The notes under the pieces are model-generated. The model was not told where the DNA came from. It saw only the letters and a program-made list of their open reading frames with translations, and did no database searches. The position numbers were made by a program, and so were the translations under genes. A stretch of 63,915 nucleotides of DNA, the filler included, from Sphacelaria rigidula (Eukaryota), in NCBI GenBank assembly GCA_964200075.2. It is 6 parts of 6 records of this genome, joined end to end, with 100 filler letters (N's around TTAATTAATTAA, not from the genome) between each part and the next. Parts side by side here need not be neighbours in the genome. Positions count along the whole stretch, not along the records: positions 32,015 to 42,582 come from CAXNAA020006262.1; 5 more parts are not named here. The stretch is one strand, 5' to 3'. Within the stretch, counting starts at the first letter, position 1; each line of letters starts with the position of its first letter. Below, in pieces: positions 5,376 to 53,349 of this stretch.

Positions 5376-6718
5376 GTCAGCGCCGCACCGCGTCGAGACA
5401 GTTTTGAAGGACGTCAGACGATACGACACATTATACGGCACAAAAACAAACGACACACCCGGAAATCCGGTGTGCGTAAAACGTACAATACTGAAACGCC
5501 AACCGAAGCGCGGGCCCTGGAGGTCTGATGAATAGTTGATGTTTCAGTTGCCCTGTCAGCGTTGTCAGTCCCGTCGAAAAGGATATCGGATCCGCTCTTA
5601 TCTCCGCTTGTCAATTTCATATCCTCACCAAGCGTCTGGGATCGAAACAACGGTGGAGTGCAACTCCGCAGATGCCTCCTCTTTACACTGAGAATGCCTG
5701 CACCCGTTTTCATTTAGCTCTAGTATCATAATGTTTCGGCAATCTTGCCCACCTGTGAACGACGCGATCCCATTGTGCATGAAAGTACAGTACGTGCTAC
5801 ACGGCACTCTACGCAACACAATGGGCAGAGCACCGTGCGTACTAATGCACAGCACAGTGTTCTCTACTAGCGCGGATAGGATGGATACCCCGTTGACTGT
5901 GCTGCTCACGCTAGGGTCAGGGTCGGGCCACCTATACGGTTGAATTGGGCTAGTGCATGCGGGGATCCAATTGTGAAGAAGACGCCTCAGCGGTTAGTAG
6001 GGCTCAATCGCGAGTTGAAGACGCACTGGGAGGTGGTGCTTTTTACGCCTGGCTTAACATGCAATGGTCTCCGCTATTTGCCCTCTTCAGACACATGCAC
6101 CTCCCAGCTATTTGTTCCGCGCGAGATACGCAACCTTACGTGATACAAAATATGCCCAAGCCCTAGCACGTTCAATGGTGAGCCTAGTGTAATTAATCTA
6201 TGAGGCGCTATCTGAAAAGAATAATCATTCTGTCGATGAACTGATGCTGTGTAGTCATGGGTGTAATTTATCCGTGAACTAAAAGAGAGTAATGCGAAAT
6301 ACCGTGATCGTGTGGGTCTTCGCACATGTCGGGGTCTGCGTCATGGCCCAGGGGTGCGTATAAAAAGCCAGATCCCGTTAACATGATTCGATTACCGTAC
6401 AGGTATTAGGGTCATCGCACAGGGGTGCGATGAACCCCGAAAAACTCCAACTTCGGGCGTGGGTTTGAGTACAGCGTGGTTCCGGGGCACTTACTGCGGT
6501 GCAAGGGATGTCAGCGCTGGTATCCACCGTAGGCTCCACTGCTGTGTTGTGGGACCGTGGCGATCCACTCATAATAATGGGTAAAACACATGAAGAATTT
6601 CCTATATCATTGCTGTCGTTTTTTTCAGCATCACATATATCGGAGTCATCACACATGGCTGTGCGTTGGATGGCAGAACCAGACGATTTAGTTCGGTTCC
6701 TGCACAGGTATCTGGGCT

Positions 6719-10572: not shown

Positions 10573-10672
10573 NNNNNNNNNNNNNNNNNNNNNNNNNNNN
10601 NNNNNNNNNNNNNNNNTTAATTAATTAANNNNNNNNNNNNNNNNNNNNNNNNNNNNNNNNNNNNNNNNNNNN
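10573..10672. other. Artificial contig linker N44-TTAATTAATTAA-N44
   Basis: Six-frame stop linker, identical at five positions. Confidence 0.98.
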
Positions 10673-10880: not shown

Positions 10881-11077
10881 AAAGTATTCTCCCCTCGACC
10901 CTGCCTACTTACAAATCTTCACGTCGTCAGCGTTTTCTTTCATCACTTCCTTCAAAACCAATAACTCTTACTTCCCCCGTACACGAAGAAGTAAAATCCG
11001 ACTGAGCTTCGGCCCTCCACTCTGGCGACTCCACGTCTCAAGACTTGGCTGCTAGTGGCGACCACGACCACCATTTG

Positions 11078-11450
11078 TCCAAGACTTCCAACATGATCGT
11101 CGAGTCGCTACGCGCTCGCTCTGTTGCGAAACGCACACCGTCCAAGACTCCCGATATGATCGACGAGACGCTACGCGCTCTCTCTGTCGCGGACCGACTA
11201 CTGTCCAAGACTCCCGACATGATTGACGAGCCGCTACGCGCTCGCTCTGTCGCGGATCGACCACTATCCAAGACTTCCAACATGATCGACGAGCCGCTAC
11301 GCGCTCGCTCTGTTGTGAAACGCACACCGTCTAGGAGTTCCTACATGTCTCACGAGTCGCCACGCGTTGCCGCTGTTGTGAAACGCAAACCGCTTCAGGA
11401 TTCTGCCGCGGTTATTGACTCACCCCGCACTCGCGCTGTTGATGAACGGC
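11078..11450 (+). repeat. 63-bp tandem repeat (4 good + 2 degenerate units) within ORF 11045-11773
   Basis: tccaagact at 11078, 11141, 11204, 11267; encodes 21-aa units SKTxxMIDEPLRARSVxxRxx. Confidence 0.9.
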
Positions 11451-11958
11451 ATCCGTCTATGCCTTCCGACGTTTTCGGTACGTCGCACAAGGGTTCCGAT
11501 GCCTTACAGCGCCCGCGACGATACGTCATGTATCGTGAGGACACTTCTGTTCACCAGCCCTCGCGCCGAACATCCTCCTGGCGTCTTGGTCGCTCCGAAG
11601 AGTCTTCCACAGGGCACTTGCCACGGCTCTTGAGCACTTGCTTTGTTCATGACCGGCTGTCATTTCTGACGGTCCGGCGACAACTGCCCTTTCACAAGCG
11701 CTTGCCGCCGCGTTTCACACAACCGTTCAACATTCAACGTCCTCAGATCATGTTCACTTTGACAGTAATGTGAATCATCAGGCCTCTGTACCAGTGGCTG
11801 CAGCCCATGATGACGAACGTTCATCCTCAGATGTTCCTTATGGATGGTGATGCCACTGTCCACCATGGTGATCATACCACTCATGTTCATGATGTACGTG
11901 CATTGCTATCGGGATTATCATCGACCACGGGATCCTCACGACTGTTGATCGGACCCAT

Positions 11959-14900: not shown

Positions 14901-15098
14901 AGTCATAGCGACTCTCGCTCAAATCGCGACCGCCGCCACACCACCAACACCGTCTCAGGTAGTCGTCATAAAGATAGTTCTTTCAGCCCTTCTGAGTCTT
15001 CGCATGGTCATCACCAGCGAACGGGGCCGACTCACGACAACTCCAACCCAAATGCCAAAAGCCCTGGTTCTTTCATGAAGGATCGCAACGATTCATGA
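11959..15098 (+). pseudogene. gag: Gypsy gag-like ORF split by a frameshift near 12965
   Basis: ORFs 11959-12972 and 12909-15098; zinc knuckle CINCNGTGHSMRDC; FADYLREFKLL capsid-like segment. Confidence 0.8.
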
Positions 15099-15891
15099 CA
15101 CGCCGACGACAGCGTGAAGTCTTCGGTGCCGCCGATAGCAACATCGAAGACTCATCCAACACACACTCGGGTGACGAAACGTTCTCACCCAACACTATGT
15201 AGGAGATCTGAAGACGGCCGTTCTTCTCGACCCCCGTCTTTATCTTCATACACACAGCGTAACCGTTGTGTTGACTCACGACCCAGCTCTATGCTTGGCT
15301 CCAGAATTGGTCCTCCGGAACTAAGTATAAATCTGAGGTGTGGGAAGACCGATCGCGGACCCTTGAGGCACAGGCTTCCCTCAACGACCGCACGCACCGG
15401 TTGTAGCAGACTTCCTTCAACTGGTTCTGATGTTGATGGTTCGAAACTGACTACTTCAAACCCTTCGACTCCTACCCAGCCTGATCGTTGTCGTTTTTCG
15501 CGCCACTCTTCTTCCGCGAAACTACCCCGACATACAGTGGACAACACTCGTCCCCTTTCACATTAAGCAGTGCCCCTTGTACCGAGCTTGCCAGCGGACA
15601 GTCCACAAGTTTCGGCCAAGCATGCCTCGATGCTGACAACGTCACCTCAACTGGACGCAGTTGCAGTTTCCCAAGAGGTCTTGGAAGTTCCCAGCCATTT
15701 GTCACGGCACGAGGGGAAGCCTCGTCGTCATGCCCCTAAGGAAGCGCGAGCATTGACACGCCCCCTTCTCGTCAGCGGAAAATTCCGACCTCATTCTCCC
15801 CAAAAAGCGGCGACTTTGAGCTCGATGGCATTGCCAGGCATCCAAGAGGAATCCAAATCGGACCTTTCAGACGGTACCGCATCCTCCACCG

Positions 15892-18800
15892 ATGACCCCC
15901 GTAGCACTTCGCAGCAATCTCTATTCAATGATGATCCTTGTACTTCCAAGCCAGTCATCTACGAGATTGATCAAAATCCTGATTCACGCTGCCCTTCACG
16001 ATCGGATCAGACCCCCGCGCTGTCTACCGATACCTTCGCACCCCCCCGCGGATCACCCGCCATCCGTTTTCACGGTCAGTCCGACTAATCCTGACCAATT
16101 CACGTTATCTGAACATGGCCCTGACCTTGTAGGTGGTAAGGTGTCCGTTGATCCTGCCACCTTCACTACCCGCGTAGCATTGCACTGTGGCCCTTACGCC
16201 ACCACGCGCGCCAAGTGCGTCTCGTTGCTAGACAGCGGTAGTCCACAGACATTCATCAAAGAATCCATGTGGCATCACATGAAGCAGACTAGCTCTGCTT
16301 CCGATGTTTGCGAAATCACAACCCAACCTCGCGTTTGGGGCGGTTTCGGCGACTCCGAAACACCCTTGACGACAGGCAAATCTGTTCGTCTTAGTGTACA
16401 ATTTTTCCACAATGATACACGTTCGGCTAGTTTCGCAGTGTGCGCTTACATCGTCCCTGATTGCACCATGCATCATGCTCTCCTTCTTGGCAGAGATAGC
16501 TACATGCGGTTCGGCCAACGTACGTACCGCACCCTCCAACCATTATCGCCTCAGTCGGTGCCTCGTGGAGAACTCCAACTAGAACACTTTGGTACCCTCA
16601 ATGGTGCCTTAGCCTAGGAAAAGAATGAGCAGGCTACCGGAGCGGCTTACCATCTTCGGTACAATGGCAGTTCTGGCGTCACCCTTTCCGACGAGCCTCA
16701 ACTCTTGGAAGTTTTGCTTGTTCGCCGCAACGGCATGCCTGCCCTCACCGGTCACTACCTTGCGGAACTGCTGCCTAAAGTTGGCGCGCCCGCTGACACT
16801 GAGCATTTTGTCTCGTACGGCGAATTACTCGTGCCTCTCACAGGCCATGCTAATTTGGAACCCGGCGATGTCTTGGGCATCGCCGCGGCTCCTCTTATGC
16901 ATATTCCTCTGGAAACCTGTGTAGCCGCCCCTCCGGCGCCTCATCTCACGCCGCCGACTGATAGTTTTGTTCACTGCGTCGATGAGCCATACTTCAATCT
17001 ATCCGCCTCACCCCCGACTCGGATTTCTGCGGTGGAATCCGACCGACCTCCTGCTGAACCTCCTGATGAAGTGCTTCAACGCTATCGGTCGAGTCTCGGG
17101 AACATTTCCTGCAAATGTGGAACCAACTTCCACCCCATTTGCGTGATATCCATTTTGACCTACATGGTCCGGGCTGGGAGCCCGCCGTCATCGAAGAGAT
17201 ACAAGATGTTCTCCTGGAATACCAGGACAGATTTTCACGATCCAAGACGGATCCCGGGCATTGTAAAACATTGCCATTCGAGATCACTCTGCTACCTGGC
17301 GTTTCGCCAATCTCATCTCGACCATATCAAACGAATCCCCTCCTCACCAAAAAAGTCAATGGTATTTTGGATGCATACTTAGGAACTGGTCTGATTCAAC
17401 ACTCGTCTTCGCCATGGGCCTCACCCCTCGTGCTCGTCCCAAAACAAAGATGGCAACATACGCATCACCGTGAACTACAAACCGCTGAACCGTGTCACTG
17501 TCGTGGGAAAACTCCCCATACTTCGCATCGACGAAGTCTTCGACTCTCTCGGCGAAGGAAAACATTCAGCACTTTCGATTTGGCCTCTGGATTTTTCCAA
17601 AATACCATTCACCCCGATACCGTTCCCTTAACAGCGTTCTGTACATCTTCAGGGCTTTATGGATGGCTTCGTATGCCACAAGGCGCTGCCACCGCACCTG
17701 GCTGATTTCAACGCCTCATGCAACGCATTACGGACGGTCTCGAGCATGTTATCATGTATCTAGACGATGCTATCGCTTTTGATGCCTCCCCCAAGGCGCA
17801 TGTTCGCACTCTACGGGAATTTCTCTCCCGCTTGCGAACACACGACTTGAAATTGTCTCCATCCAAAGCTCGGCTCGGAGCCACTGAATTGGATTCTTTG
17901 GGACACTCTATCTCTCCTGCTGGATTGCACCCAGACATGGACAAGGTCAAGGCTATGACTGATATGCCCATGCCCACCAATATTTCGCGGCTTCGCTCGC
18001 TGTTGGGTGGACTTTCATATTATCGCAAATATTTGCCCAACTTGTCCAAGCGGATCCGGCCTATCACAAATTTACTGAAGAAAAACGTCCCGTTTATCTT
18101 CACTGAAGAAACGGAAGCCACCGTCCGCGAACTGCTCAAAATACTGACCGAAAAACCGGTTCTTTGTTCTCCGGATTGGGATGCGGTACAAGACGGCTTA
18201 CGTCTTTTCCGACTACACACCGATGCTAGCACAGATGGGTTCGGTGCCGTTTTGAATCAGCCTCAACTGGATGGCTCTGTCCGATATGTTTTGTACATCA
18301 GCCACGCAACCCTCCCAAATGAGGCAAGCTGGAGTGCACTCGAAGTAGAAGGCGGAGTCATAACTTGGGCTATTAAACGGCTTCGACAGTACTTGTTCCA
18401 CGTGCCTTTCCACATCTATACAGATCACGGAGCTCTTGAACAACTCGCCAAGGTTGGAGAACATAACCCCCGCGTGCAACGGTGGGTGGAGCTCTTGACT
18501 GCCTACAAGTACACTGTTAAACATCGTCCGGGCAAAACCAACGGCGATGCTGACCTTCTATCGCGATTGCCTCTGCCCCCTACAGCGGTAGATTTCAGTC
18601 ACGCTTGCCGCTTGACTGAATCTGATGAACCAGACATCTTCCCCACTCGGCGTTTTTCTACGCACATCTACGCGCTTGACCTGCAATGCCCTGAAACAGG
18701 TCTGCACATGGGGAGCCCCCGCCCTCTGCCCCCTGATACAGTTTTGGACGGCTTAGCGCCCACAGCTGCTGATTTTGCCGACTTCCGCACTTTCGGCCCT

Positions 18801-21209
18801 CGCGCGAACATCTCGGCGCCGCCACCACCAACTGTTCACCTCATTTCCGACAACACGCGCTCTCGGTCGGCAGCTCGTGCAAATTCTTCGCGTGCTGTGA
18901 TGCCACCACCGCTGCCGGCCGCTTCTAGCAATGCGTCGCCGCCGTCGCCTCGTGCCCCCACGGGCCGTACCACGCCTCCAACAACCGGCCGCGTGCCCAG
19001 TGTTGTATCAACACCGCCCGCGCCCCTTGTGCGCCCAACGCGCCGATCGCGTTCACCAGTTCGCGCTACCCCCACGCCGCCTTCTGGGAATCTCCTAGCA
19101 CCTGCGCCATTGACTCGTGATACACATGCGTCAGATCCGCTCCCGGATCAAAATTTTGACGTCGGCACCCCTGCTTCTTCACCTGTGTCACCCCCTCCTG
19201 AGCCACCATGTTTGGTTGGCTCTCCGGCTGAAGGACAACTTCGAGAATTTCTCGCTAGCTACTCTCACCGCGATTAGGCTCGCGACCAACAACAGGAACC
19301 ACTCTGTCGTGCAACAATGCGGTGCTTACGGCTTAACCGCCCCACCCCTTAGCCGGCTGAGATCCTGACTCCCGTGGGCACTCTACCCACCCCCACCGCC
19401 TCTGAAGGTCTATGGTCTGATGACTATGGCATGCATGATCATGAATACACCGCCTCCGAAGTGCTCGAGCTGGCACGCAAAGGTACTATCTTCGCGACTG
19501 ACGACGACGTCCATTTGCTTGTTCGCCGACCCAACTCCCATTTGGGCACGGCTGCCGCAGTGACAACTGCCGCTCCGGCACGTACTCGTCATGACACCCC
19601 TATCCGCATCTATGTCCCTATCATGATGCGTCCGTGGGTCATGAAGGGCTGTCACTCTGATTTGTCCTGCTACTTAGGCGTCACGCGCACATTAGCGTTC
19701 CTTGAACGCTTTTATTAATGAATTGGCATGGAAGCATCCATGCGTTTTTGGGTCCGACGATGTTTCAAATGTCAGACTCGCAAAACCTCTGGACAGACTG
19801 TGCGATGGCCAGTGATTTCCATGGAGCTTCCAAAACGCTCCTGGTCACTTGGTATCGTTTGACTGCTTCGGCCCTTTACCCCCAACTGACCGAGGCAATA
19901 CTGCTAGCGATTTCACTGCTGCCGGCACAGCGGACATTCTCGTTCATGACTACATTAAGCACTGTGGCTGCCCGAAACGGCTTCTCTCCGACAATGGTCA
20001 ACAGGTTTGCTCCGAACTCTCGGATGCTTTGTACAAGCTCCTAGGCATTCGCAAACTTGCCACGAGCGCGTATCACCCTAACGGTAACGGTGAGACTGAA
20101 CGTGTGAACCACACGATGGCTCAAATGCTCTCCATGATCGTAAACGACCGACAAAATGACTGAGACCTTCATCTTTTGCATGCCATGCTGTCTTACAACA
20201 GCTCGGTTAACGCGGCTACGGGCCTCTCGCCCAACGAGCTATATCTTGGACGCTACCCTCGTCTACCCATCACCGATTGCGAAATACATACTGTCGATGG
20301 TCACCAAGGTCTGGACCAGGATCAGCTGTCCTACCACGACCTCGCCCGCGCTCGTCAGCGCAAGGTTTTCTCTTTGGTGCGCGAACAAGACGCTATCAAC
20401 GCCTCACGCCTTGAAAGATCCAATGCCGCCCTCTACAACTTGATGCACAAACACCCTAGTTGGAAGATCGGCGATTGGGTCTGGATCTACAACAGTTTGT
20501 CCACCATCCGTAAAGGCGCTGACCGTACTGCCCAGGCAACAGTCTTGAAGACGAAACTGTCCCTCAATTGGACGGGCCCATTCAAGATTCTCATAGTCGG
20601 ACCCTCGTCGACGTCTCCTGACGGCAAGCCTGTTGGCGACAAACTCTTCTACCTCGATTTACCTCGTGACCTTCAGGGGCACGATGCTAAATCTCGCGTC
20701 TCTGTGCATTGTTGCAAGCCTTGCACGAACCCACATGACACGACGGACATGCCTCAATACCTGCCTGCAGGTCTCACTCAATACGTGCTCAACAGCTACT
20801 CAACACAATCTCCACCGTACCACGTTACCACCGATGACGTGACTGAACAACCTCTCCGCTTGGCCGTGTCCCACATTTCCGGCCACCACATCACTCGAGG
20901 CCCTGGCGGCAAAACTGCCGTTATGTACAAGATACACTGACAAGGTCTTCGGCGTGCGTCTTGGGAACGCGAGTCCGACCTTCAACTGCACCGTCGTGGT
21001 ATCCTTCTCTATTGGACACAATCCCCACAGCAACAGCTCGCTGACAACAACGGATATCGCAACATGAGACGCGGCGCCGCAGCCCGCGAACTCCACCGCG
21101 ACAAAGGACTACGTTTTGTAGCCGATGGATACGAACTGGTACCCACCAAACAATGGGACGAAAAGATTCGCGCAAAACAACAACCGCTCCCTAAAGGTGC
21201 CTACTTGTA
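15892..21209 (+). pseudogene. pol: Gypsy pol: aspartic protease, RT, RNase H, integrase, chromodomain (disrupted)
   Basis: LLDSGS; SSPWASPLVLVPK, FDLASGFFQ, RMPQG, YLDD; LHTDAS, IYTDH, DADLLSR; CFKC, LLSDNG, YHPNGNGETERVN; WTGPF; YKIH*QGL..SWERESDL. Confidence 0.93.
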
Positions 21210-21244: not shown

Positions 21245-21344
21245 NNNNNNNNNNNNNNNNNNNNNNNNNNNNNNNNNNNNNNNNNNNNTTAATTAATTAA
21301 NNNNNNNNNNNNNNNNNNNNNNNNNNNNNNNNNNNNNNNNNNNN
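21245..21344. other. Artificial contig linker
   Basis: N44-TTAATTAATTAA-N44. Confidence 0.98.
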
Positions 21345-31914: not shown

Positions 31915-32014
31915 NNNNNNNNNNNNNNNNNNNNNNNNNNNNNNNNNNNNNNNNNNNNTTAATTAATTAANNNNNNNNNNNNNNNNNNNNNNNNNNNNNN
32001 NNNNNNNNNNNNNN
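31915..32014. other. Artificial contig linker
   Basis: N44-TTAATTAATTAA-N44. Confidence 0.98.
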
Positions 32015-32779: not shown

Positions 32780-33077
32780 AACAACGTTTTCGTGAAATTG
32801 AGAGGTGAACGTACGACTGAGAGTGGAAAGCGATCAATTAGTCCGAAATGCACCTCCACCAGGCCCAATAATATTCTCTCTGTAGTAGCTTACCACTGAG
32901 GCCTTCGATACCCCTGAGTAGGATATCAACGTGTAGCTGTAAGCACATGGCAGTGNNNNNNNNNNCAGTGATGAGACGACGAAAAGCACACACGGAATGA
33001 AAAATTGGCCAAGTCAAAGCGAATGATCAAAGCCACTCTCAATCGCACCCAGCTCTCAATCTCACGAAAACCTTGTT
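32780..33077. mobile_element. MITE, same family as 9220-9519
   Basis: Same TIRs and internal ccctgagtaggatatc..cgtgtagctgtaagcaca. Confidence 0.8.
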
Positions 33078-34457: not shown

Positions 34458-34735
34458 CGAGGGTAGGCCATCTGGTCATGTACTGATTGTTGAATTAAAA
34501 CTGATGCCGGTTCGACAGACTATCAATGGTCGCTGTCAAACAGCTAACAGTTAACAGTTAACAGTTACCATGTCGCCCAAATCTGTTCAGAATCCAATGC
34601 GAAAATAGAGGCCGTTTGTTCTCCCTTAGAGCTAGTGCGCGAGGGTAGGTCATCTGGTCATGCAGTGATTTTTCAAGTAAAACTGATGCCGATTCCACAG
34701 ACTATCCACGGTCGCGGTCAAACAGTCACCATGTC
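34458..34735 (+). repeat. ~95-bp direct repeat, two copies 182 bp apart
   Basis: cgagggtagg(c/t)catctggtcatg...aaaactgatgccg at 34458 and 34640. Confidence 0.8.
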
Positions 34736-35077
34736 ATCTCGGACGCCAAAAGGATCCACCGATACATCAGCGAGAAAATCCATCAAATTGAACGCATCAC
34801 GTCAAAACACCATGCAGAACACACACAGCCCGGAAAGCAAAACCCAAGCAGAACCGGAAGGCACTAATATGTCTAGCGAAATGAAAGCGGAGAGGCTAAT
34901 ATGTATAATCAGCGAAAACGTATACTCTAAAATCAAGTAAGAGGTCATGGTGCGTTCTCAGAGCTCCTGGGTGGAAGGAAATGCCCGGAAAGGTATATTC
35001 TCTAATATCAAGTGAAAAAGTACACCTGCATCCAAGCTCGTCAACGGCCAAAAAGATTAAATGTATCACGTGTATAT

Positions 35078-36759
35078 CACCCTGGACAATACAATATGTA
35101 ATATATTTTGCCCGCACAATATGTCGACGCGTCGGGTGGTCAATATATATATTGGGCGAGCAATATGATGGTACGACAGAGGGTCAATATATATATATTG
35201 TGCCATCAATATGGCAAGGCTCGCGATATGCAATATATATCGACGGAACAATATATCACGACACGCGCCACCTCAATATATATTGGCCGAATAATATGTT
35301 GTTGCGAGAAAGCACCAATATATATTTGCCGAGTAATATACTCCCCGCCACACGAGGTCAATACATGTTGATGATTCAATATACTCAACACCCGAGGCGT
35401 CAATATATATTGCCGCCCCAATATGTCGTGCGTCAATGCGTCCAATATGTATTGGGCAGACGATACACGAGGGAACCGACGGTCACGATACATATTGGTG
35501 TAGTAATCTATTTTAATTTACAACATGTATATTGGAAATTGTATTGGAATTATTATAGTATAGTGAGCAACTCTATGTTCGCTGGCGCCATTGAAAGATG
35601 TGTCACCACATGCCGAAAACGCTTAATATTTTCCTCCGCAAGCGTGTTCAATAGATACTGGCTGCACAATAGCTATGCGATGAACGTGCGCAACATATAT
35701 TGGCAAAACAATACTTTTGCACGGTTTGCGTTCAATATATATTATGGTAACAATATGCGACGCATCGCTTCGACTCAATATATATATTGACACTTCAATA
35801 CATACACGGCCGGCATGCACAAAATATATTAAATGTTTCATTCCCGGAGCAAATTCATGTCCAACATATATATATATTGTCATACATTTCTTCATGACCA
35901 TGACACGAGCAATATATGTTGTTGCTTTAATGTCTCCAAGGACATCTCAACACAATACATACTGAAAGAACAATATTTGCGCTGGCTCCAACACAAAGTA
36001 TTGGTATCATATTGGAACATATTGTGTTGTCCAGGGTATAAGCAACACAGCACCGGTGACCACAGGGGTACCAAAAGGCACATATCAACCCGCGTTTTTT
36101 TATCATCGTGATGCTCAGCCAAGATATATCAATTACATGCTGTGAAGGGTATGGGCGGTCTCGCACCGGTGGCCAGATAGGTATCAGGAGGCGTACATAC
36201 CGGGTCGCCTCTTACGTCACCATATTTTCTGACCAGTATATATGTATATATATATACATATATATCAGCGCATTCGAATAAACTCTCCGTAGTAATGCAC
36301 GCGGACTTCTGCGGCTCCCTTTAAAGCTTTTCCCAACCTGGACGGGCTCCGGCATCCATCGCGTCTGGACCTTCCTTGAAGCGTACACCATACTTATAAT
36401 ATCCGATATATATTGACCGGCCAATACATTAGCACCCACGCAGGCCCAATATATTTTGACCGGTCGAAATGTTTTCATCAGTACTACCCCAATATATATA
36501 TTGGTCGTCCAATATGCTGTCGCCCACGCTACCCCAATATATATATATATATTGATAGGACCATATGTGTTCAACCCTACAGTACCCATATATATTGGGC
36601 AGGCAATATGTATGCAGTCCCACGACATCAATATATATATTGGGCGCGCAATACGTTTGCAGTCCAGGGGTATCAGCATATATTACGCCGGCAATATATC
36701 GCAAAATTCCAGTATGATCGACAAATATATATTGGAAACATTTTGTATTGTCCAGGGTG
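35078..36759. mobile_element. Non-autonomous TIR element (CACCCTGGACAATACAATATG) with one left and two right termini
   Basis: 35078-35098 is the reverse complement of 36018-36038 (2 mismatches) and 36739-36759 (1 mismatch). Confidence 0.7.
35099..36735 (+). repeat. Regularly interspaced array CAATATATATTG-N6-CAATAT-N18/19, ~28 units in three blocks
   Basis: Unit starts 35141, 35185, 35231, 35274, 35316, 35359, 35401, 35443, 35486; 35649, 35691, 35733, 35776...; 36404, 36447, 36490...; spacer sequences differ. Confidence 0.9.
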
Positions 36760-37212
36760 TGTATATATATACATATATCTAAAACTCCAGATGCGTCGAA
36801 GCAGAAACGTTCGTTTTTCCTTTCTTTTTTCCAACGGTGTCTGGGACATGTCGTTGAAATCATGAGGACGTGAGTACTCGTGGCAAAAAGGGGTATGTAT
36901 CGTCTTGACGCGAGCTTTTGTTAGACGACAGTCAACGCGGTGCGGGAGTGCTGATCCAATCCGCTATACAGTACCAAAATGCGAGAACGCAAACAGCGTT
37001 CAAGGGAGGATACACGATATGATACGAGCCACGAACGAGCTTTCAAGGTGAGGGGCGAGTACAACGAGTGAACCTTCGACACGTTCCAGTCAAGGTACAC
37101 GATCTTCCACACTACAGCGCGTACACTCTGGCTCAATGAATGAAAACATACGCATGAGGTTTGGAAATGTAAAGATATACAAAAAGGGGGTACATCCCCC
37201 AAAATCTCTGCC

Positions 37213-37216
<4 letters not shown>

Positions 37217-37251
<35 letters not shown>
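37217..37251. repeat. (TG)n microsatellite
   Basis: Pure dinucleotide run. Confidence 0.95.
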
Positions 37252-37252
<1 letters not shown>

Positions 37253-39192
37253 GGGGAGGGGGGGGTACACCCCAAACGAAAGGACTCAGCGCACTGAAAA
37301 AAGGAAACATATCGGGGGGAAGGGGGGGAAGGGGGTGTTGCCACTGGGTCCTCTGGGATCCCGAACAACGGTGTTTTGAAGGAAAAACGCACCTGTAGAG
37401 ACAAAAACTGGCAATTAGAAGGTGGGCTCCTGCTTGAGGTTGCAGTGTACCCCATTTTTGCCGCGTGGCGCATGCAGTCTAGCTCCTACAACTATTTTAG
37501 TAACCCCCTTTTTGCTTCGACGGGTGCCCCTTTTTTTTTCCAAGTCGCCTGAACATAACGACCCCCTTTGTGTCTGTTCCTCGGCGAAAAGCTGGGCACG
37601 CGACACGGCAGCGGTCCTTTAATCTTGACTCTAACGCGCAAGTTGCGACCGAGTCATGAAAGCTAATGGAAAACGACGCGCTTGTGGCATTCGAGATCCA
37701 AACGAGATCCATCGCGACGATCCAAACGGGGTCCGGGGTCCCATCGTGTTTGATGTTCCATCCATATTCAAATGACGCCATATCTTTTGCACGGACGCCA
37801 TGTGGCATAGGCGGGCCGGGCCGACCATGTCTAATTTTTTTTTTTTCTTCGTTTTTTCTGTTAATTCTCATATTCCCTTTTGTTTATCAAGTCTGACCTA
37901 TTTTGCCTTGTGCTTCCTTCACTTTTCTACAGCGAGTGTTGCAAAATATATATTCCCCCCGGGCCGTGATATGTAGAAGCTGGATAAGAATTTTCCGAAT
38001 ATGAGGGCGGTTTGTCGTTGAAGGTGTTAAGGTGTTACACGAGGTGCTTTTGCGCCATCTTGTTTTCATCATGCTCCCATCGGTAGTACGACTGAAGAAA
38101 TCGCTTAAAGCAGGGGATGAGAACTAATCATCCCCTCCCCTGGGAAAAAATGTCTCTCCAAGTGGGGTTTTCAAGATCTGACCAGTAAGAAAAACTGGGT
38201 GTTGTATTTTTTTCTCGTGCGGAACGAGGAAAAGCATTTTTCCGCATTTCCTGTTAGTGGAATCTTGGGTATATAGAGAGCGTGTTATAGACCCGACACT
38301 CTGAGAAGAAAAAAATATGTACACAAAGTTCCCCTCCGGGGGGTTGGTACGGGCCTCCCGGGGGTGACGCAAGTCGAAAGTAAAAAATATACTTCCTACA
38401 AGTATGCCTTTTCAACGCGCTGCAAAAAAAAGCGTGGGGGAAAAATGCCTTGCTGGCAGAGAAAACTCGGCAAAAGTGGCGAACATGTGAAGTGATGCAT
38501 GTACATAATACACATGGATTGAATGAAGGGAGAAAAAGCGCGCGAGTCATCGCTTTGTCCGCTTCGATCGAGCAAGTATATATTGCCCTCCGCGGAAAAA
38601 TCAACAGACACAACTGATGAGGGAGTCTCCAATTACATAGAACGATGTTTTCGTGAGATTGAGAGTAAAGGATACGGTTGAGAAGGAAAAGCGGTCAATT
38701 ATATAGTGATTTAATCGTTTCAGTTCCGAAAATATCCCTCCGCGAGGCCCTTACCGAAGCAGCGGGCTAACTCACAGTTATTAACCTGCGAAGCACCGGC
38801 ACAGAGATGATCCTGTGAAGTCAATGTTGCACCAAAAGCAAAAAACGTTTTTTCGGAACAAAATCTTACCGTTTTGCCTTCTACTGCGCACTGCTGCAGC
38901 GCACAGCACCAGATATAGCGACTTGGAACTGTTGCCTGTGGTTTGCACAGCTTATGAGCGATGATTCAGCGCCTCGCAGCGGCTGCAGCGCGCTTAGGGC
39001 CGTACGCCATGAAGTGCGCAGCTCAACAGAGTGTATGCCGATCGGTGCACTACAGATGGTCATGATCCAGAAAGGACCCCAGTACAGACCGGTGCCAGTT
39101 TGCTACCGCGTCGGCCGTCCAGTCGCTCAACATGTCCAAGTTCATGTATCTGCGCATGCATATGTGCATTCGCCTGTAGTGCGATACAAGTA

Positions 39193-40304
39193 CAGGCTGG
39201 GCCGCCTAAGACGCGGACAGGGATGTGAACACGCGATTTAACAGCTGAGTTTCAGGTCGTTTTCTATGACATTTTGACACGATGTACAGGATGTATGTAC
39301 CAAGACACCACATTTCCCCCCGTATGTTTTTTCTTTATTTTCTTCAAGTTATTCACGATTTTGTTCCGAAAAAACTGTTCTGAAATGTTTGGTTGCCGAT
39401 ATCTCACGGGGAAAGATAAAATAATATAGAGGGGGAAAGGTGGCGTCTTGGTACATACCTCCTGTACATCGTGTCAAAATTTCATTGAAAACGACCTGAA
39501 ATTGAGCTGTTAAATCGCGTGTTCGTGTCCAAGACTGGTTCCTATGTGGAGATGAAACAGCCACGAAATAAATGAAACGCGGTTATGCTGTTGAATTTAA
39601 AGTATTTTTTCACGAAATTTCGACACGATACGCATGACGTATGTGTTGAACTCCCCATTGTTCCCTCTTGACATTGTTTTTTTTTAAGAGTTGTCGACGC
39701 TTTTGCACGAGAAAAAAATGTTCCGAAAAGTAGATCACCAATAACATACGAGGAGAAAAAAAAAGAGTGGGCAAACGGTAGGGGCTTCACATATGCCCCA
39801 TGTATACCGTGTGAAAAATTGATGAAAAACAACTTCAGACTGAGCAGTGAAATCGCGTTCTTCTGCCGAGAACCGGTTCACTTGCTTTTAGAGTACAATA
39901 ACCTCAGCCGGAACTTTGACGTTTTCAACAAGCGCGACGCCTTGGCGCGCTGGAGGTCTGGTCTGCGTGCCATCTCAGACACTGCGAACCTACAGTACGA
40001 CATACCTTGTTGTACAACCACAACTAGTGCAGCACCATCACTTTGCGACCGCGGCACAACTGACTGTAACCGTATTCCCCCCGTAATTCCGCCGCACATC
40101 CCAGCCTCAACTCTCTACATTTCGCAGCTGACTGCAGTTCGGTATTTCGTTTGATGGGAACTTGTCAGATCGCAGTGCTACGTGAAGTGAAAAATGCGCG
40201 TTGATTTGCAAGTTACCACGATGTGTCGTAGTAGGCACGTCTCGCGATAGATCATCAGTTAGGACCGGCTGAAGGAAAGTCCGCTTCTTAAGCGGCCCAG
40301 CCTG
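39193..40304. mobile_element. Complete 1112-bp Tc1/mariner-pogo-type MITE, 26-bp TIRs, TA duplication
   Basis: TA|CAGGCTGGGCCGCCTAAGACGCGGAC ... GTCCGCTTCTTAAGCGGCCCAGCCTG|TA; internal inverted pair ~39257-39495. Confidence 0.9.
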
Positions 40305-40306
40305 TA

Positions 40307-40896
40307 CTGCTGGCCTTCCCCTTGTCTACATCGAGTCTAGTGTGGACCTTTCCTGTCTCATCCGTGTTCCACAGGTGGTCCGCTTCGACATCGTGCTCTT
40401 TGGTGAAGTCCTCCCATGACTTGTAAAAAGATCGAAGGCGTTCGTCGTCATTGGCCACAACTCTGTTCGCCTCGTAGATACGGTTGGAGCGCTCCGACAG
40501 CTGCGGGTGCCTCTGGAGGAAGCCCCTGACCCACTTTGGCCCTGGGCCTTCGTCTGCCTTCCAAGGGATGTTGCGCCCGTCGTTGCACAGCTGTCTAACG
40601 GCTTCAACCAAGTCCGACCGAGTCAACCCCAAGTGGTGGTGCGCAGCATACACCAGTGTGTCCACGATCGAATTCTCCTTTTCCTGGCTCAAAACTGTCG
40701 CAGCACCGGCCTTAGCATCCATCGCACAGTCACCCTTCAGGCGGCGCAGAATCGACTTCCTGCTGATGCCGAAGGCCTTCTGGGCCCCCAGAACTGTTAT
40801 CTGCTTGCTGCGAACAGCCTCACAGGCCTGTTTGACCACGCTGGGATCCACCTTTTGCCGCACGTTTTGCGCCATCCTTAGCAGCGAGATCGACAA
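40307..40896 (-). pseudogene. pogo/Fot1/Tigger-like transposase N-terminal part (pipsqueak HTH, CENP-B HTH, first DDE motif)
   Basis: AQKAFGISRKSILRRL; TVLSQEKENSIV; PGPKWVRGFLQRHPQLS; LWNTDETG; rest not found. Confidence 0.85.
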
Positions 40897-41815
40897 AATC
40901 TCGAAATGGCGCGAGACACCAGACGATGCGGTTGCCGGTGCTGTAACTCGCGAGTGGCACAGCTGACAGACACGCTGAAGAGTGCAAACGAAAGCTACAG
41001 GTCTCTCCGCATTTTTTTTTTTTTAGGAGTTCTGTGTATGTTGGCGTCATNNNNNNNNNNCCACACGAGTGGAGGGGACAAAAGAAGCCCTGACGGGGGC
41101 AACGGAAGGCTACGGGTCCCCCGGCTTTTTTTTTTTTTTTAGGAGTTCTGTGTATGTTGGCGTCATTTCGTAACCGTTTGATATAGTGTCCTTATTATGA
41201 CACTGTGCCTATAAGAACACTTTACTCTAATAGTTGGGCACACGCAAAGAAAAGGGCTTGTTTGATTTGTTGCAATATTCGGGGGGGGGGTTTTCATCAG
41301 CCTGCCCCCAACAACAGAAGAGGAAGAGAGAGAGAGGCAATCGTCTGGGAAAAAATCTGTGTTCTTCTGTCGACGGTTTACTTACTGTAGACGATCATGT
41401 ATTTCTGTGTGCGTAATTTTTTACTCTTCCTACTCTGTGTGTGTACTTCCGTTAATTTGGAGTTTAGTGCGAGTATCGATTTGATAGAGAGAAGGCCCAA
41501 AGTAGAAACGAAAAAAAAGGTATCAATTAATGTAGGCCAATGAACAGCACACACACACTAGAGTATGACGTGCACTAGAGTATGACACACTGGAGTATGA
41601 CTTATCCGGCGACCCTAAGGGTCGTCGAGGGTGCAACCCTACCCCCGCCAAAAGTACCCAAACACGAGAGTCGTCCACAAGATCGAAAACACCACCGACG
41701 GTTACCCCAGACCGCCAATCGACCAATATTGGGTAAAAAGCTATCTCACCCCGTCGCCGCACCTGGGGATCGCTTTCCCCCCCCTCCGCACCCCCGTCGA
41801 CCACGCGCCACGAAG

Positions 41816-41983
41816 GTCGACAACCACGGGACATGGAACGCGTCGGTTGTGTACGGCGACACGGACTCGCTCTTCATCGAGCTCCCCGGCCGCAGCCTGG
41901 AGGAGGCCCACCGAATCGGACGGGAGATGGCCGCTGCTGTAACGCGATCGTGTCCGCCGGATGTTGTTCTCAAATTCGAAAAA
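41816..41983 (+). CDS. REV3: Internal exon of DNA polymerase zeta catalytic subunit (family B)
   Basis: WNASVVYGDTDSLFIELPGRSLEEAHRIGREMAAAVTRSCPPDVVLKFEK matches the REV3 pattern VVYGDTDS.F...IG.E.A..VT...P..V.LKFEKV; AAG acceptor and GTGAGC donor, 168 bp, phase 0/0. Confidence 0.88.
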
Positions 41984-42041
41984 GTGAGCGATGGCCAGGG
42001 GGGTGAAAGGGCGTGTCCTCATTATTCTATTGGCCGTAGTC

Positions 42042-42250
42042 GTAAGACCATTGACCTTGCATCCCTACAAGGCGTGACGGACGGAGCACGCCGGGTTTTG
42101 GCCGGATCAGACTCGCTATCACCGAGAAAAATAAAAACAAACTATTGAGGGGATTCATGATCTTGTATGCCGTCGTCATAAGACCATTGACCTTGCATCC
42201 TTACCAAGCCAGGGCGGAGCACGCTGGATTTTCGCCGGACCAGGCTCGCA
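42042..42250 (+). repeat. Dispersed repeat taagaccattgacct(t/c)gcatc..., two copies here and one at ~57499-57566
   Basis: Direct sequence similarity. Confidence 0.7.
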
Positions 42251-42582: not shown

Positions 42583-42682
42583 NNNNNNNNNNNNNNNNNN
42601 NNNNNNNNNNNNNNNNNNNNNNNNNNTTAATTAATTAANNNNNNNNNNNNNNNNNNNNNNNNNNNNNNNNNNNNNNNNNNNN
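42583..42682. other. Artificial contig linker
   Basis: N44-TTAATTAATTAA-N44. Confidence 0.98.
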
Positions 42683-45039: not shown

Positions 45040-48000
45040 ACTTCTCATCTCGAGCCAAGGGCAAAGCCATGGTGAATTTCAAAAAGATCTCTCGGCAGAG
45101 CCCTCGTGAGGATGTCCGCATGCTGTTCTTCGCTGGGAAGATGCGTGATCTCGGTCACACCCTCCTCAGTCAAATTCCATAAGAAAATGGTGCCTCACGT
45201 CAATGTGCTTACTCCTGCACGAGCTGGGCGGATTCTCTGCAAGCGCAATCGCATCTTCGTTGTCCTCAAGTACCTCAATCTTACGAGGCTTCATGCTAGA
45301 CCTCAAGAACTGAAGCATTCCGTTCACAAACAGAGCCTCCTTCACACCATAACCCATCGCAAGATACTCTGCTTCAGATGTCGATTGTGAAACGCATTTC
45401 TGCGTCCTAGAAATGCAAACTACAAGCATGGCAGCCATGAAAACCAACGCTCGCGAAACTGATCTACGGCCAGTGGCCTTGCTTGCAAAGTCGACATCTA
45501 CGTACACCAAGGTGCCCACGTCTACCGTACTGTCCTGTTTAAACTTCAGCGTAAGATGCGCCGTTTCCGGATGATAATTCAGAATCTTCTTGGCTGCCTT
45601 CCAGTGGCTCTTCTTTGGCTCGTGAGAGTGCCTCGCCACCGCCCGCACTGCATTTGAGATGCCGGGCCTTGTCTAGTTGGCGATCCACATCAGGCTTCCT
45701 ACCACCTATCGGAACGGCACATCTCCTGCCCCCTCATCCTCCATCAAGGGCCTGTTATCGTCGGCAAGGGAAGCAGGGATCGAGTCGGTGCGACAAGTAT
45801 CGTATCTCTCGAGAACACTCTTGATGTAACTCTCTTAAGAAATCTCAATCATGCCAGCCTCACGGTCGCGGATAAATGTAGGAAGAGAGTCACCTAGCGC
45901 TTCCACAACCACCTTGGCAAGACTCTTTGTTCCTGCATATAGGACGCCATCCACGTGAATCGCGACCATACCCACCACCTCGTCTCCCATCATGAAACGC
46001 AGGACACAGGGGTCAGACAGAGACTGCTCGAAACCAATCCTCTTCCGGTCCGACACTATCCTTTTGTAAAATGTTCTAGACGCCTGCTTCAACCCGTACA
46101 AACTCTTGTTCAAACGGACAACCTTTCCTGACATCGATTCGCAGCCAGGAGGCAACTTCATGAACACCTCGTGATCCAATTACGACTGAACAAACGCTTG
46201 CTCAATATACCAGTGGAGAAATTCCAAGTTGTACTTGCACGCGGACGCTACTAGCAATCGCATCGATGCAGCATTTGCAGTAGGCGAGAAAGTCTCAAGG
46301 TAGTCCACACAATACTTCTGCTTGAAGCCCTTCGCTGCAAGCCTAGCCTTGGCCTTTACTGTCTTTCCTGTTTCGTCTGCTTTCCATTTGAAAACCCATC
46401 TAGCATCAATCACATTACAGGCTACTGGGATCTTTACTGCTAACGTGAACGTTCCTGCTCCTATCAAGCCTTCAACTTCTGCAGACATGGCTCCATCCCA
46501 AATCTTCGCGTGCTTCGATTGCCAGGCTTCTTGATAGATACCAGGCTCTGACTCAACATTCTGAACGAGTTCTTTCAGCAATTCCACGGCGTCACCTGCT
46601 CTCTGTTCCGTTAAGAGTGCATACGGTATCTCTGATGCGGAGATGAGTCCTAGGGTGGTCCCAAGGCCAGACACTCTCCGCTGATTAATTGCACGAGTTT
46701 GCGCACGAGTTCCACCTTCTCTTACCTCATCATTGTCACGCGCAGCAGTATTAAAATCGGCAAGCTCAGCGACATGCCGCGGACGACGAGCGGCTGAAGG
46801 AGGTGCCTCCGCCTCTACTTCCTGCCCTCCCGGCCCATTCGACTCTACCTCATCATCTCCTCCCGGATCCGCCGTCTCTACTCCCCCTGTTCCCTGCCCT
46901 CCCTGCCCCTCCCCATCTATCTCAAGTGCTGGAGAAGACACAGAAGAAGCCGCTCTACTAGAGGGGTTGTTCACGGGCAAAGACGGTACAGAGGGGGAGG
47001 ATGGAACAGAAGGGGACTGGCCTACACTGCTTGCATCAACAGTGCCAACCTCATCAATTCCTGCAACATAGGGTTCACGATTCTCATCAAGTCACACAGC
47101 GAAGCACTTGCCTCAGCCCAGAGTCTGTCAGTCTTGGTAACTGCACATACCCAAACAGAACGTTCGCCTGAATACGAGCCGCCATAGCTGCCTCCTCAAT
47201 CAATCCCAATACACGCTCTGCAACAACGTTATATTGGGGACTGTAAGCTGGAGTGAACTCTGGTTTGATCAAAAGTTCATGGCACACGGATGCAACCCCC
47301 CCCCAAAACAAACTCCCCTCCATTGTCAGATATAATAATCTCAACCAACGATGGGATTCCATCAGCACGCACACTAGCAAGAAAACTTCCGAAACCACTC
47401 CCAGCGTCTGACTTACTTTTCAGGAAATACATCCATGCACGCCTTGTGAAATCGTCCTTCACAATCATGGGGTAATGCTTACCCCCTACGGACGCAACGT
47501 CCTTCCTCCCTCCCAGGTCAACAAAACCTCTGCCCAAGTTTTTATCCGATCTACGTTTAGTTTCATGAGCAATGATTTTCCTAATAGCCTTCGACATTGA
47601 ACATCCCGTACAAGCATGCCTGTCACCGGTCAACTTGGTACTTAGTCGCTTTGCAGTAGTACGAAGCAATCCCTCGTGTGAATGAGCATAAATGTTATGA
47701 AACTCATTCACATCCATCTTCTATTCATGCTTGGGGTTCGAAGGAGTGAGGGCAGCCAACACCAAACCAGCAGAGTCGTCTCCCAGACGATACGCAGTCG
47801 CAATTAGCATGCCATCAAAGTTCTGAAAAATAAGATGTCCGTCGTAAGCAGCCATTACACCATCAGTACCACCAAGACCATTCCATGACTTGCCATCAAA
47901 CTCTGCGCTGGGAAAAAAGAGGTTATACCCCAAGTTGGGAGAGTAACAACAACACGTTCTCCAGCTTTACGGAGAATTCGCTGTCAGCAGTCACAAACAC

Positions 48001-49668
48001 CAACTCCAGTGTTCCAGAGAGTGCTACCTCACAAGTTACACCACCAACCTCTTTTACGTTCTTGTGGCAAGGCTTCACATCCTTCATACGATAGAGAGAG
48101 TCAGTCATGTGGAAAGCAGTACCCATGCCTGCATACCCATCTTCGACACACCAATCCTTTCTTACAAGAGAAGAGTATTCGCGAGCAGCATCATCACTGA
48201 ACAAGAACTCACGCAGCATGGCATCGTAAAATGCTACCAGACACGTCAGATCACTCGAGTTGTTCAAGCTGGTTTGAGAGAGCAACAACACCAAGCTAGA
48301 CTTCTCACCGTTCTCATCCTCGTCGTCCTCGAATCTCCCCGTCTGGGTAGGATGAGCGATCACACGAGCCAGGCAGTCCTTCCTCAAGTGACCCTTTTCT
48401 CCACACTTGAAACACTTCCCCTGAAACATCTTTTTCTTGGACGAATCAGATTCAGAGCTAGACTTCGACTTGTTGTTCGGCTTCTTGGTACTCTTTCTCT
48501 CTGCCCTAGACAAAAGAGCAACACTACTATGCTTCTTCGGACCAGCTTGTGTCTGCAAGTCTAGATACCGCTCACGCACTTTCGTCTCTATGAACGATGG
48601 GTCACTTGGACAGAACACCACAAGAGCTTCACGTAAAGTCGTGTACTTGAGCGACAGTCCCTCAAGCATCAGGTTACACACCTCTCTGTCATCTTTCTTG
48701 ACTTCAAGCATTTGTAAAACACCAAGCGCCTCTCTCATGGATGCAAAGAAGGTTGCGGGATTCTCATTCGCACGCATGTGTAGCGACTTCAGTTTCTCCT
48801 CCACCTACGTGAGTACAGTACGCTACTCACAAACAATAGCAGCACACTGTCGTATCCTACGAGCTTACGCGGCTCAGCTTAGAAGATATCTACCATCAAG
48901 GATCCACATAAAACGGTACTGCACCCAGGGTCATTGCTGGGGCACTTTATGAACTGGAACCTATTGTACCGCTAATTTGCTACACCCAAAAACCTAGAAC
49001 GAAACGAACAGCTAGAGTACTGGCTGTATAAAATTTCAATAACAGTATCATGTTGGTGAGTCGAGACCAATGTCTGCAATCGGAATCTCAGCCTCAGAAA
49101 CAAACGCCTCATACAGATTGTTGTGTCGAGCACTCGACAGAAAGTTCTGCGACCATGAGGGACACGACACGCCGTTACCGTCAAAAACAGGAGCTTTGGG
49201 AACTTTGAAAGGACCCCTACCCAACTTCTCTCCTGTGCCAAAAATGTCAGCCCCAGGAATCAATGTGTTTCCACTGGCGACGTTTTCCCACCACTTACTC
49301 GACAGAGTAGGAGCGAGCGGAACAGAGGACTGGCCCAAAGCCCCACCTACAGTCCCGATCGAAGCAAAGTTTACTGCAGCAACATAGGAACGATTTACAG
49401 CAGATACATGAGGGTTTAAGCCTGAGTCTGCAAGACTACTACTCCCAACCCGCATGCTGGACACGCCTAAGCCTTGGGCATCGCCGCCCGTACCTCCCGC
49501 GGTCCCACCAGTAGCATCCTCAGAAGGACGCGTACTAGTGTCTGGTCCGGCACCTCCCGGCGCGGCAGCTACAAAACCAGAGGACTCCACTTTCTCTCCC
49601 TGTAGCATATTAACAGCGATGAATTCGACACGTAGTGACGAAACCCTGTGAAGCGCCCTGTGTGGCAC
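45040..49668 (-). pseudogene. Copia gag-pol polyprotein, with frameshifts
   Basis: CFKCGEKGHLRKDC; AFHMT; H-x4-H...CTGC; SDNGGEF; WVFKWK..KARLAAKGFKQ..DYLETFSP; LNKSLYGLKQA; HVDG (degenerate YVDD); STSEAEY; SKHIDVRHHF. Confidence 0.93.
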
Positions 49669-50082
49669 AAAATAATACCCTAGAGGGGGCTATCGCGGCA
49701 CCCCTCCGATGTTGAACCCCATCTTCGTGGAGACCCTCTTGAATCTGCATTTCGCGTCTCCGTTTTGAGAGCTGTATCTTGATAGTGTGGAGTATCGCAA
49801 GGGCAAGGTACAAGCAAACCGTTCGCAACCTTGCGTTTTTTCATGGGTGAGGGAGGTTCTGGGAATGATGCACGCTATTTTTTACCCTTAACCCATTTAT
49901 GTGCTAACCTCGGTTTTAGACTTGTACTTCGAAATCACGTGTGGAGCATCGCAAGGGCATACTACACGCAAAACTGTCGGGGCCTTGACTTTTGTTCGTG
50001 ACTCAAGGGCGTTCTGATGAAACGTTTTTCGTTTGTAAACTGGAGCGTCTTCAGCTAACGAAAAAGCAGCATCTCGCAGATT

Positions 50083-53249: not shown

Positions 53250-53349
53250 NNNNNNNNNNNNNNNNNNNNNNNNNNNNNNNNNNNNNNNNNNNNTTAATTA
53301 ATTAANNNNNNNNNNNNNNNNNNNNNNNNNNNNNNNNNNNNNNNNNNNN
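53250..53349. other. Artificial contig linker
   Basis: N44-TTAATTAATTAA-N44. Confidence 0.98.

Follow-up and report, generated by a model that had tools for sequence, protein, structure and literature searches.

A phased array of putative CAATAT binding sites as the body of a probable non-autonomous DNA transposon in Sphacelaria rigidula

We analyzed a stretch of 63,915 nucleotides from the genome assembly GCA_964200075.2 of Sphacelaria rigidula (hereafter the window), which carries between positions 35099 and 36735 a regular array of palindromic CAATAT motifs separated by variable spacers. A preliminary description, made from the sequence alone, had likened this array to the guide arrays of CRISPR and TIGR systems, while judging a transposon to be the more parsimonious explanation. 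Our results showed that the array fills the body of one element copy of 1,684 bp (35078-36761). With high confidence, this is a single decayed copy of a high-copy, non-coding, non-autonomous family of cut-and-paste DNA transposons, in a transposable element (TE)-rich eukaryotic, apparently algal, genome. More specifically, we read it as a non-autonomous transposon with terminal inverted repeats (TIRs) whose body is a phased array of putative binding sites for a transposase or an accessory protein, and we give this reading a probability of about 0.6.

The element is delimited by two 22-nt TIRs of 95% complementarity, located at 35078-35099 and 36738-36759, and the TIR pattern is found three times in the window against 0.00 expected. 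In the left TIR (CACCCTGGACAATACAATATGT, + strand), the outer 9 nt are unique and CAATAC/CAATAT half-sites already occur in the inner part. The right TIR lies on the - strand and reaches 36761 when the adjoining TG, which the family consensus counts as element, is included (36738-36761). The half-sites present in the inner half of both TIRs are the same as those of the array.

Contigs from four public sequencing runs, assigned to the same organism and to "algae metagenome", were aligned to 34800-37000 at a likeness of at least 80%. Three of the runs (X1, X3, and X4) are of DNA type, and the fourth (X6) is considered RNA by guess only, none of the listed runs that contain the stretch being recorded as RNA. 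We obtained 9012 contigs in X1, 8821 in X3, and 7607 in X4, most of them 80-95% alike; by identity band, X1 comprises 730 contigs at 99% or more, 1623 at 95-99%, 3636 at 90-95%, and 3023 below 90%. The summed depth in X1 is ~24,000-209,000 in the element bins compared to 72.8 in a flanking bin (36798-36871), which sets the family very roughly at 10^3 copies, an order of magnitude at best, as a ratio of summed contig depths is no copy number. Family contigs are also present in X6, at low depth. The family would also mark a very abundant repeat in the genome of this alga.

Similarity stops precisely at two positions, 35078 and 36761, where the loose ends with the best support on the element lie. 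Just before 35078, 89 (X1), 93 (X3), and 63 (X4) contigs run into unlike sequence, and just behind 36761 the corresponding numbers are 121, 127, and 108. Beyond both positions, the flanks agree poorly among contigs (0.40-0.44 over 30 letters). TIRs at both ends, many dispersed copies, and similarity that stops at the termini are the features by which TIR transposons are recognized. The earlier preference for a transposon is thus well founded, given the 22-nt TIRs and the thousands of diverged, colinear contigs in three DNA runs whose flanks break at 35078/36761.

Within the element, we recognized 23 units of the form CAATAT(AT)nATTG-N6-CAATAT-N18/19 between 35099 and 36697, all co-oriented on the + strand and distributed over three blocks; a unit was counted when it had at most 4 mismatches in the 18 motif positions. 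Each unit of ~43 bp holds three CAATAT half-sites (forward, reverse and, after N6, forward again), and the motif makes up ~42% of its length. Four of the 23 units are perfect, 11 have no more than one mismatch and 17 no more than two. Two further slots, at ~35819 and ~35861, have kept the phase and lost the motif. The array therefore lies where it had been placed, co-oriented and in three blocks, while the count of "about 28" units is replaced by 23 recognizable ones, the two phase-only slots and a terminal palindrome (CAAATATATATATTG, 36721-36735, + strand) directly inside the right TIR. The pattern CAATATATATTG-N6-CAATAT, with up to two mismatches, gave 14 matches in the whole window, all on the + strand and all within 35099-36609, against 0.02 expected from 100 shuffles. 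Similarly, 43 of the 80 CAATAT/ATATTG hexamers of the window fall in 35050-36800, with 28 and 15 in the two element bins versus at most 5 per kb elsewhere.

The spacing of the half-sites follows the palindrome-N6-CAATAT-N18/19 scheme that had been proposed. The first spacer measures exactly 6 nt wherever both flanking half-sites are intact (nine ATATTG-to-CAATAT/C distances of 12), and the second is 18 or 19 nt long. Unit lengths are 42-46 nt, plus single values of 47, 49, and 51, and the length beyond 42-43 consists largely of additional AT steps in the palindrome. Block A (35099-35509, + strand) contains 10 units, with a pairwise identity of 0.84 for motifs and 0.29 for spacers. Block B (35649-35976, + strand) is the most decayed, with 6 recognizable units and the two degenerate slots, and a motif identity of 0.57 when both slots are included. 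Block C (36404-36697, + strand) has 7 units, all with second spacers of 19 nt, and shows a motif identity of 0.84 and a spacer identity of 0.38, its spacers being visibly related. Tandem Repeats Finder does not report the array, a sign of how far its units have diverged.

Comparison of the copies showed that the spacers belong to the family and not to the locus. Overlapping diverged pieces of 250-370 nt, with ~13-16% differences, are colinear over the blocks, the linker, an internal TIR copy, and the non-array segment that precedes block C. Since such pieces are 83-87% alike over at least 6 units and motifs represent only ~42% of a unit, the spacers must be ~70% or more identical between copies. 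Family copies carry the same spacers in the same order, and the window copy is a somewhat decayed member. Among the 34 listed positions inside the element at which the family majority differs from the window copy, 18 are single spacer bases, 11 are outside the array, and 5 are motif positions, and all five of these restore CAATAT. Units are lost and gained between copies: joints skip 48, 86-88, or 128 nt, some inserted strings are unit-like, and a joint from 35167 to 36607, between two CAATAT sites, implies a derivative of ~245 bp. The number of AT steps is also polymorphic, with 2 or 4 nt omitted at 35143, 35187, 35778, and 36631.

These data bear on the hypothesis of a guide-RNA array, in which transcripts of the array would be processed to RNAs of ~42 nt, with the variable stretches of 6 and 18-19 nt directing a nuclease. 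Constant and variable segments do alternate at fixed length, and ATATTG-N6-CAATAT is an inverted repeat, so that a weak A/T hairpin, looped by the 6-nt spacer, could form in each unit. However, the hairpins predicted for the units have little stability (-4.1 to -12.5 kcal/mol, z -0.15 to -1.9), and the spacers are shared, in a shared order, by the roughly thousand dispersed copies of this repeat. The comparison of spacer order between copies had been suggested in the preliminary description, and identical spacers in identical order were the first of three results that it had named as jointly contradicting a guide array. The second of these results concerned spacer targets: allowing at most 2 mismatches, we found no further match of any spacer 18-mer in the window. 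At 3 mismatches we found 4 matches against 0.8 expected (the maximum of 20 shuffles being 3); these isolated 15/18 matches, considered as possible targets, have no motif context and were taken as chance or composition.

Regarding effectors, we found no Nop, Cas, TnpB, Fanzor-type, or other nuclease domain in the 91 open reading frames (ORFs) of at least 110 amino acids in the 64-kb window, a search in which intron-split genes could be missed, and this agrees with the earlier remark that no cas, Tas or nuclease gene is visible. The unit pattern has 0 matches in public viral, metagenome, and prokaryote genome contig collections, and no related array was found there. The TIR pattern likewise has 0 matches in the viral and prokaryote genome contigs; four loci in metagenome contigs lie in unrelated low-GC DNA without arrays, and we took them as chance matches.

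The geometry points the same way. CRISPR arrays are built of near-identical direct repeats of ~23-47 nt and unique spacers of similar length. In contrast, a palindrome of 12-20 nt and a half-site of 6 nt form the constant parts here, at a pairwise identity of 0.75, and the spacers are unequal (6 and 18-19 nt). Moreover, a CRISPR locus is expected to have its own spacer set, whereas thousands of diverged colinear contigs share the spacers of this element while their flanks differ beyond 35078 and 36761. What the array shares with TIGR is a unit made of two constant and two variable segments in alternation, the latter of fixed length. As far as the consulted part of its description goes, TIGR arrays are known from prokaryotes and viruses of prokaryotes; two repeats of 8-12 nt alternate in a unit of 36 nt, the spacers measure 9 nt (up to 12), box C/D-like UG...CCA motifs are present, and a gene for a Tas protein with a Nop domain lies adjacent (PMC12045711). 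Our array differs by its unit of 42-43 nt, its spacers of 6 and 18-19 nt, the absence of a Nop domain among the ORFs searched, and its place in a dispersed eukaryotic family with shared spacers. We consider a guide-RNA array very improbable indeed, and our data do not support the CRISPR/TIGR-like interpretation. A TE-carried eukaryotic version, in which the hairpin and its 18-19-nt tail would be cut as a ~42-nt RNA for an element-encoded or host nuclease, is just as unlikely, given spacers common to about a thousand copies, weak hairpins, and no effector gene among the ORFs searched. A tempting false positive is thereby removed: what resembled a eukaryotic CRISPR/TIGR-like array is the body of an abundant transposon family.

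Within a single copy, the spacers are close to random with respect to each other. Overall, motifs agree with one another at 0.75 (0.84 within blocks A and C) and spacers at 0.28 in pairwise comparison, with 0.25 expected at random. A residual similarity is nevertheless detected: the 18-mer spacers have a mean identity of 5.23/18 compared to 4.57 in shuffles (5.5 standard deviations; none of 1000 shuffles reaches 5.23), and 9 spacer pairs are at least 55% identical where 1.3 are expected. In block C, the spacers are alike at 11-16 of 24 positions, with 16/24 for the fifth and sixth units. We observed no clear colinear homology at the spacer level among blocks A, B, and C, and the only blastn matches were self-alignments out of register, at 67-68%, within blocks A and C. 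The view that the spacers are almost all unrelated is thus correct insofar as they are near-random (28% vs 25%), but it overlooks this residual similarity (5.23/18 vs 4.57, and 38% in block C). Taken with the kept motifs and the fixed spacing, the residual likeness of the spacers suggests that the array grew by tandem duplication, followed by a long divergence in which only the motif and its phase would have been held.

A neutral process could also account for part of this pattern. A tandem repeat might have expanded inside a transposon and be decaying there as an internal minisatellite, its A/T-rich palindromes persisting by microsatellite-like slippage or conversion with no binding function. 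This would explain the origin and turnover of the array and fits the residual spacer similarity graded by block, the unit number that differs between copies, and the polymorphic (AT)n length; MITEs (miniature inverted-repeat transposable elements) with ordered tandem-repeat variants and a palindrome in each repeat are known, as the available text on DTC84 describes (PMC3879986). Slippage, however, cannot hold the non-repetitive C, A...T, and G edges, the separate third CAATAT, and the exact N6 and N18/19 at near-saturated substitution. Units of the same age keep their motifs at 0.84 and their spacers at 0.29-0.38, and both TIRs repeat the half-sites of the array. A neutral minisatellite is accordingly rather unlikely in our judgement, and the earlier argument, by which ordinary satellite decay does not yield diverged spacers at fixed spacing, holds good.

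Constraint on the motif is indicated by the identity of motifs (0.75-0.84) compared to that of spacers (0.28), by the invariant N6, by the N18/19 that is held, and by the five motif differences out of five that restore CAATAT. The presence of the same half-sites in the TIRs supports their reading as docking sites. We infer, with somewhat better than even odds, that the array is a selected protein-binding lattice. In the mechanism we propose, one unit would have been tandemly duplicated in the master lineage of the family, after which only the half-sites and their spacing would have been kept, as docking sites for the DNA-binding transposase of the family or for a TNPA-like accessory protein. 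A period of 42-43 bp corresponds to about four helical turns and would place successive sites on one face of the helix. Many protein subunits could then cover the element and bring its two ends together, which would turn it into a favorable substrate for a transposase supplied in trans. An element richer in good sites might outcompete others for this transposase, which could explain the expansion of the array. That the whole element acts as a protein-coating lattice of ~25 tripartite sites in phase is a tentative proposal that we hold at less than even odds; the searched literature describes no TIR transposon of this architecture.

Several observations weigh against binding of a transposase or accessory protein. 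We found no transposase or candidate motif-binding protein, and none with matching TIRs in the window, so that binding is purely our inference. The units are co-oriented throughout the element and not mirrored at its two ends as in classical subterminal sites. The number of AT steps in the palindrome varies between copies, and the spacing of the two half-sites inside the palindrome is therefore not strictly held. Finally, summed contig depth does not equal copy number.

The same evidence of constraint would equally suit a host factor, such as a silencing, chromatin, or replication protein that recognizes CAATAT palindromes and whose sites the family spreads through the genome, all the more so as the motif is tied to no transposase. 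On the other hand, the motif lies within both TIRs, where a transposase must act, and shows no enrichment outside the element in the window, which makes a host factor quite improbable. If the sites are indeed read by the transposition machinery, some two dozen tripartite CAATAT sites at a period of about four turns, with spacers that drifted almost to randomness, would be an unusually clean record of what this machinery reads (motif and phase) and what it ignores. Should the partner protein be found, the family would lend itself well to studies of how proteins cooperatively coat transposon DNA.

The element has no Pfam domain or homologue, and no TIR-sharing partner lies within the window. MITEs in the strict sense are shorter than about 800 bp; the window copy, with 1,684 bp, exceeds this, although shorter derivatives exist, such as the ~245-bp form. 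CACTA/EnSpm elements end in CACTA/CACTG and produce a 3-bp target-site duplication (TSD), whereas the termini here are CAC(AC)CCTGG and, for either candidate end, the family consensus has unequal 3-nt flanks on its two sides (TTT vs AAA, or TCA vs TGA), so that a CACTA-type duplication does not fit. Elements of the hAT superfamily have an 8-bp TSD, short TIRs, and a hAT transposase, and duplications of 7-9 bp are made by hAT, P, Novosib, Zisupton, and Merlin elements. The 8-nt AAATATTT found on both sides of the family consensus fits the TSD length of hAT; the terminus is unlike the usual 5' end of hAT elements.

The family consensus reads AAATATTT-CA ahead of CACCCTGG on the left and TG-AAATATTT behind CCAGGGTG on the right. 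The simplest interpretation, and in our opinion the more probable one, would be that the element has the termini CACACCCTGG...CCAGGGTGTG and duplicates 8 bp of a preferred AT-rich palindromic target, AAATATTT. We favor this over a longer TIR because the window copy carries different AT-rich flanks on both sides. Two facts speak against it: AAATATTT is palindromic and could thus equally be 8-10 more bases of TIR, and the window copy itself shows a 7-nt repeat. This repeat, TGTATAT, abuts the element at 35071-35077, where it is a possible TSD of the window copy, and its right copy, read from the sequence, is at 36760-36766; it is ambiguous as a TSD, since the family consensus places the TG of the right copy inside the element. 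If AAATATTT is the true target, the family would be strongly site-selective.

The architecture has its nearest parallels in elements with subterminal repeats. Spm/En, with its TNPA sites, and the subterminal repeats of Ac/Hermes share with this element short TIRs and many copies of a short motif inside the ends, and the TIR here also starts with CAC. In the consulted parts of two papers, motifs of this type are cis-requirements bound by an element-encoded protein and are kept by non-autonomous deletion derivatives (PMC2613891, PMC10368747); the first presents the reiterated subterminal motifs bound by TNPA as cis-determinants of Spm/En transposition (PMC2613891), and the second an octameric Hermes transposase of which several BED domains contact the left end (PMC10368747). 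In contrast to such elements, the sites here have three parts, keep a strict phase of 42-43 bp, share one orientation, and take up most of the 1.68 kb instead of ~200 bp per end, and no TNPA-like or transposase gene is seen in the window.

Other transposons carry tandem repeats in their body. In DTC84 of Donax trunculus, the repeats are much longer than the unit described here. The element belongs, with the pearl-like elements, to the tandem-repeat-containing MITEs and, according to the portion of the article at hand, has a core of up to five repeats whose variants are distinguished by diagnostic changes, short inverted repeats, and a putative AA duplication (PMC3879986). It resembles our family as a high-copy non-autonomous element with ordered repeat variants, a palindrome in each repeat, and a varying repeat number (same portion, PMC3879986). 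The two differ in that spacers here are at near-random identity and only 18 nt of motif and the spacing persist, with TIRs of 22 nt and an AT-rich flanking repeat of 7-8 nt. Rehavkus, a MULE-related TIR element, also carries a minisatellite-like array; in the excerpted account, the minisatellite lies just before the 3' TIR, and the element is given as restricted to arthropods and annelids, with a 9-bp TSD and a PHD-finger transposase (PMC6446971). The strict phase, the tripartite site, and the near-random spacers set our element, in which none of these Rehavkus features was seen, apart from both DTC84 and Rehavkus. The arms of foldback elements are long inverted arrays, whereas all units here point one way and only 22 nt are inverted. 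One of these, Tetris of Drosophila virilis, is described in the available section of its report as having arms of short tandem repeats and as seeding satellite-like arrays (PMC4079207). The 12-nt palindrome and the 13-nt TIR string are absent from the searched literature, and the family may be catalogued in Repbase or Dfam, which lie outside that search.

The internal organization of the element points to a composite origin. A copy of the right TIR, with 2 mismatches of 21, is found on the - strand at 36017-36038. It is no element boundary in the family, as diverged contigs are colinear across it (e.g., 35809-36179 and 35940-36206). A degenerate right-end-like sequence (ATATTGGAAAT TGTATTG, 35525-35546, + strand), without the outer TCCAGGGTG, closes block A, and right-end-like sequences close each of the three blocks. 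The non-array segment (36039-36403, + strand) has a copy level as high as the arrays (depth of 26,000-136,000 in X1) and, in or near it, contains an old tandem duplication of ~115 nt (36010-36135 vs 36125-36250) in which 74 of 129 columns are invariant. From the right-end-like sequence that closes each block and the old duplication that follows the internal end, the 1.68-kb unit appears to be a composite, with three partial copies of a shorter ancestor as its parts. The non-array segment also holds a TA-rich palindrome at 36233-36270, with (TA)n at 36237-36265. This near-palindrome resembles 36756-36781, just beyond the right end, over 21 nt at 95%; an earlier AT-rich target, taken along as the composite arose, may have left this remnant, or the resemblance may only reflect low complexity.

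Stop-free frames of 121-293 codons cross the arrays, at 34909-35787 (+ strand) and 36215-36920 (both strands). The 293-codon frame at 34909-35787 (+) suggests at first sight a repetitive protein-coding sequence, and long open frames do span the array on both strands. Stop triplets, however, are depleted by composition on both strands (9 on + and 14 on - in block A, against 27 expected); with the A and T bases tied up in (AT)n and the spacers rich in GC, they reach about a third of expectation. The reading frame is not kept across units of 42, 43, and 44 nt, and we obtained no Pfam match and no homologue, in a search limited to 161-513 amino acids. On these grounds a coding function for the long ORF was rejected, and we find it hardly credible at all. 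Gene callers may mis-predict proteins on members of this CAATAT family.

Both sides of the element are themselves repetitive. The left flank is moderately repeated, with a depth of 2,000-5,000 against ~73 in the single-copy bin (X1), and contains a 44-nt direct repeat (34500-34543 and 34682-34725, 89% identity, 182 nt apart) as well as an (AACAGTT)4 microrepeat at 34539-34567. A second repeat of very high copy level begins ~110 nt past the right end of the element and covers 36872-37000 and further sequence (depth of 98,000-165,000 in X1 and 3,700-5,700 in X6, possibly RNA), with loose ends at 36917/36924 and 36964/36969, followed by a (TG)17 microsatellite at 37217-37251. An Rfam search of 34500-37500 with E values up to 1 gave only a far sub-threshold match to SCARNA7, outside the element.

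More generally, the window is a graveyard of eukaryotic TEs. A Ty3/gypsy-like remnant at 11000-21000 (+) has zinc knuckle, RVT_1, and RT_RNaseH domains, with the reverse transcriptase-RNase H region at ~17-19 kb, and a strong negative GC skew extends over 11-21 kb. A copia-like remnant at 45100-49700 (-) shows gag, zinc knuckle, rve, and RVT_2 domains. The open frame at 40291-41022 (-) has weak HTH_psq and Tc5 matches, and its neighbors in the protein atlas are CENP-B/pogo-type DNA-binding proteins; it is probably a pogo/Tigger-like transposase fragment, with no DDE domain found beside the frame. This helix-turn-helix fragment was rejected as a partner of the CAATAT element, as it shares no TIR with it and is a DNA-binding fragment only. 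At 41579-42145 (+), a frame of 189 amino acids matches family-B DNA polymerase (PF00136, E 3e-11), an isolated fragment whose possible sources are a large endogenous DNA virus and a Polinton-like element. Finally, pairs of 44-N runs, which look more like regular masking than like assembly gaps, recur every ~10,670 bases (10573-10616 and 10629-10672, 21245-21288 and 21301-21344, 31915-31958 and 31971-32014, 42583-42626 and 42639-42682, 53250-53293 and 53306-53349), and ordinary gaps would seem to explain two runs of 10 N (32956-32965 and 41051-41060).

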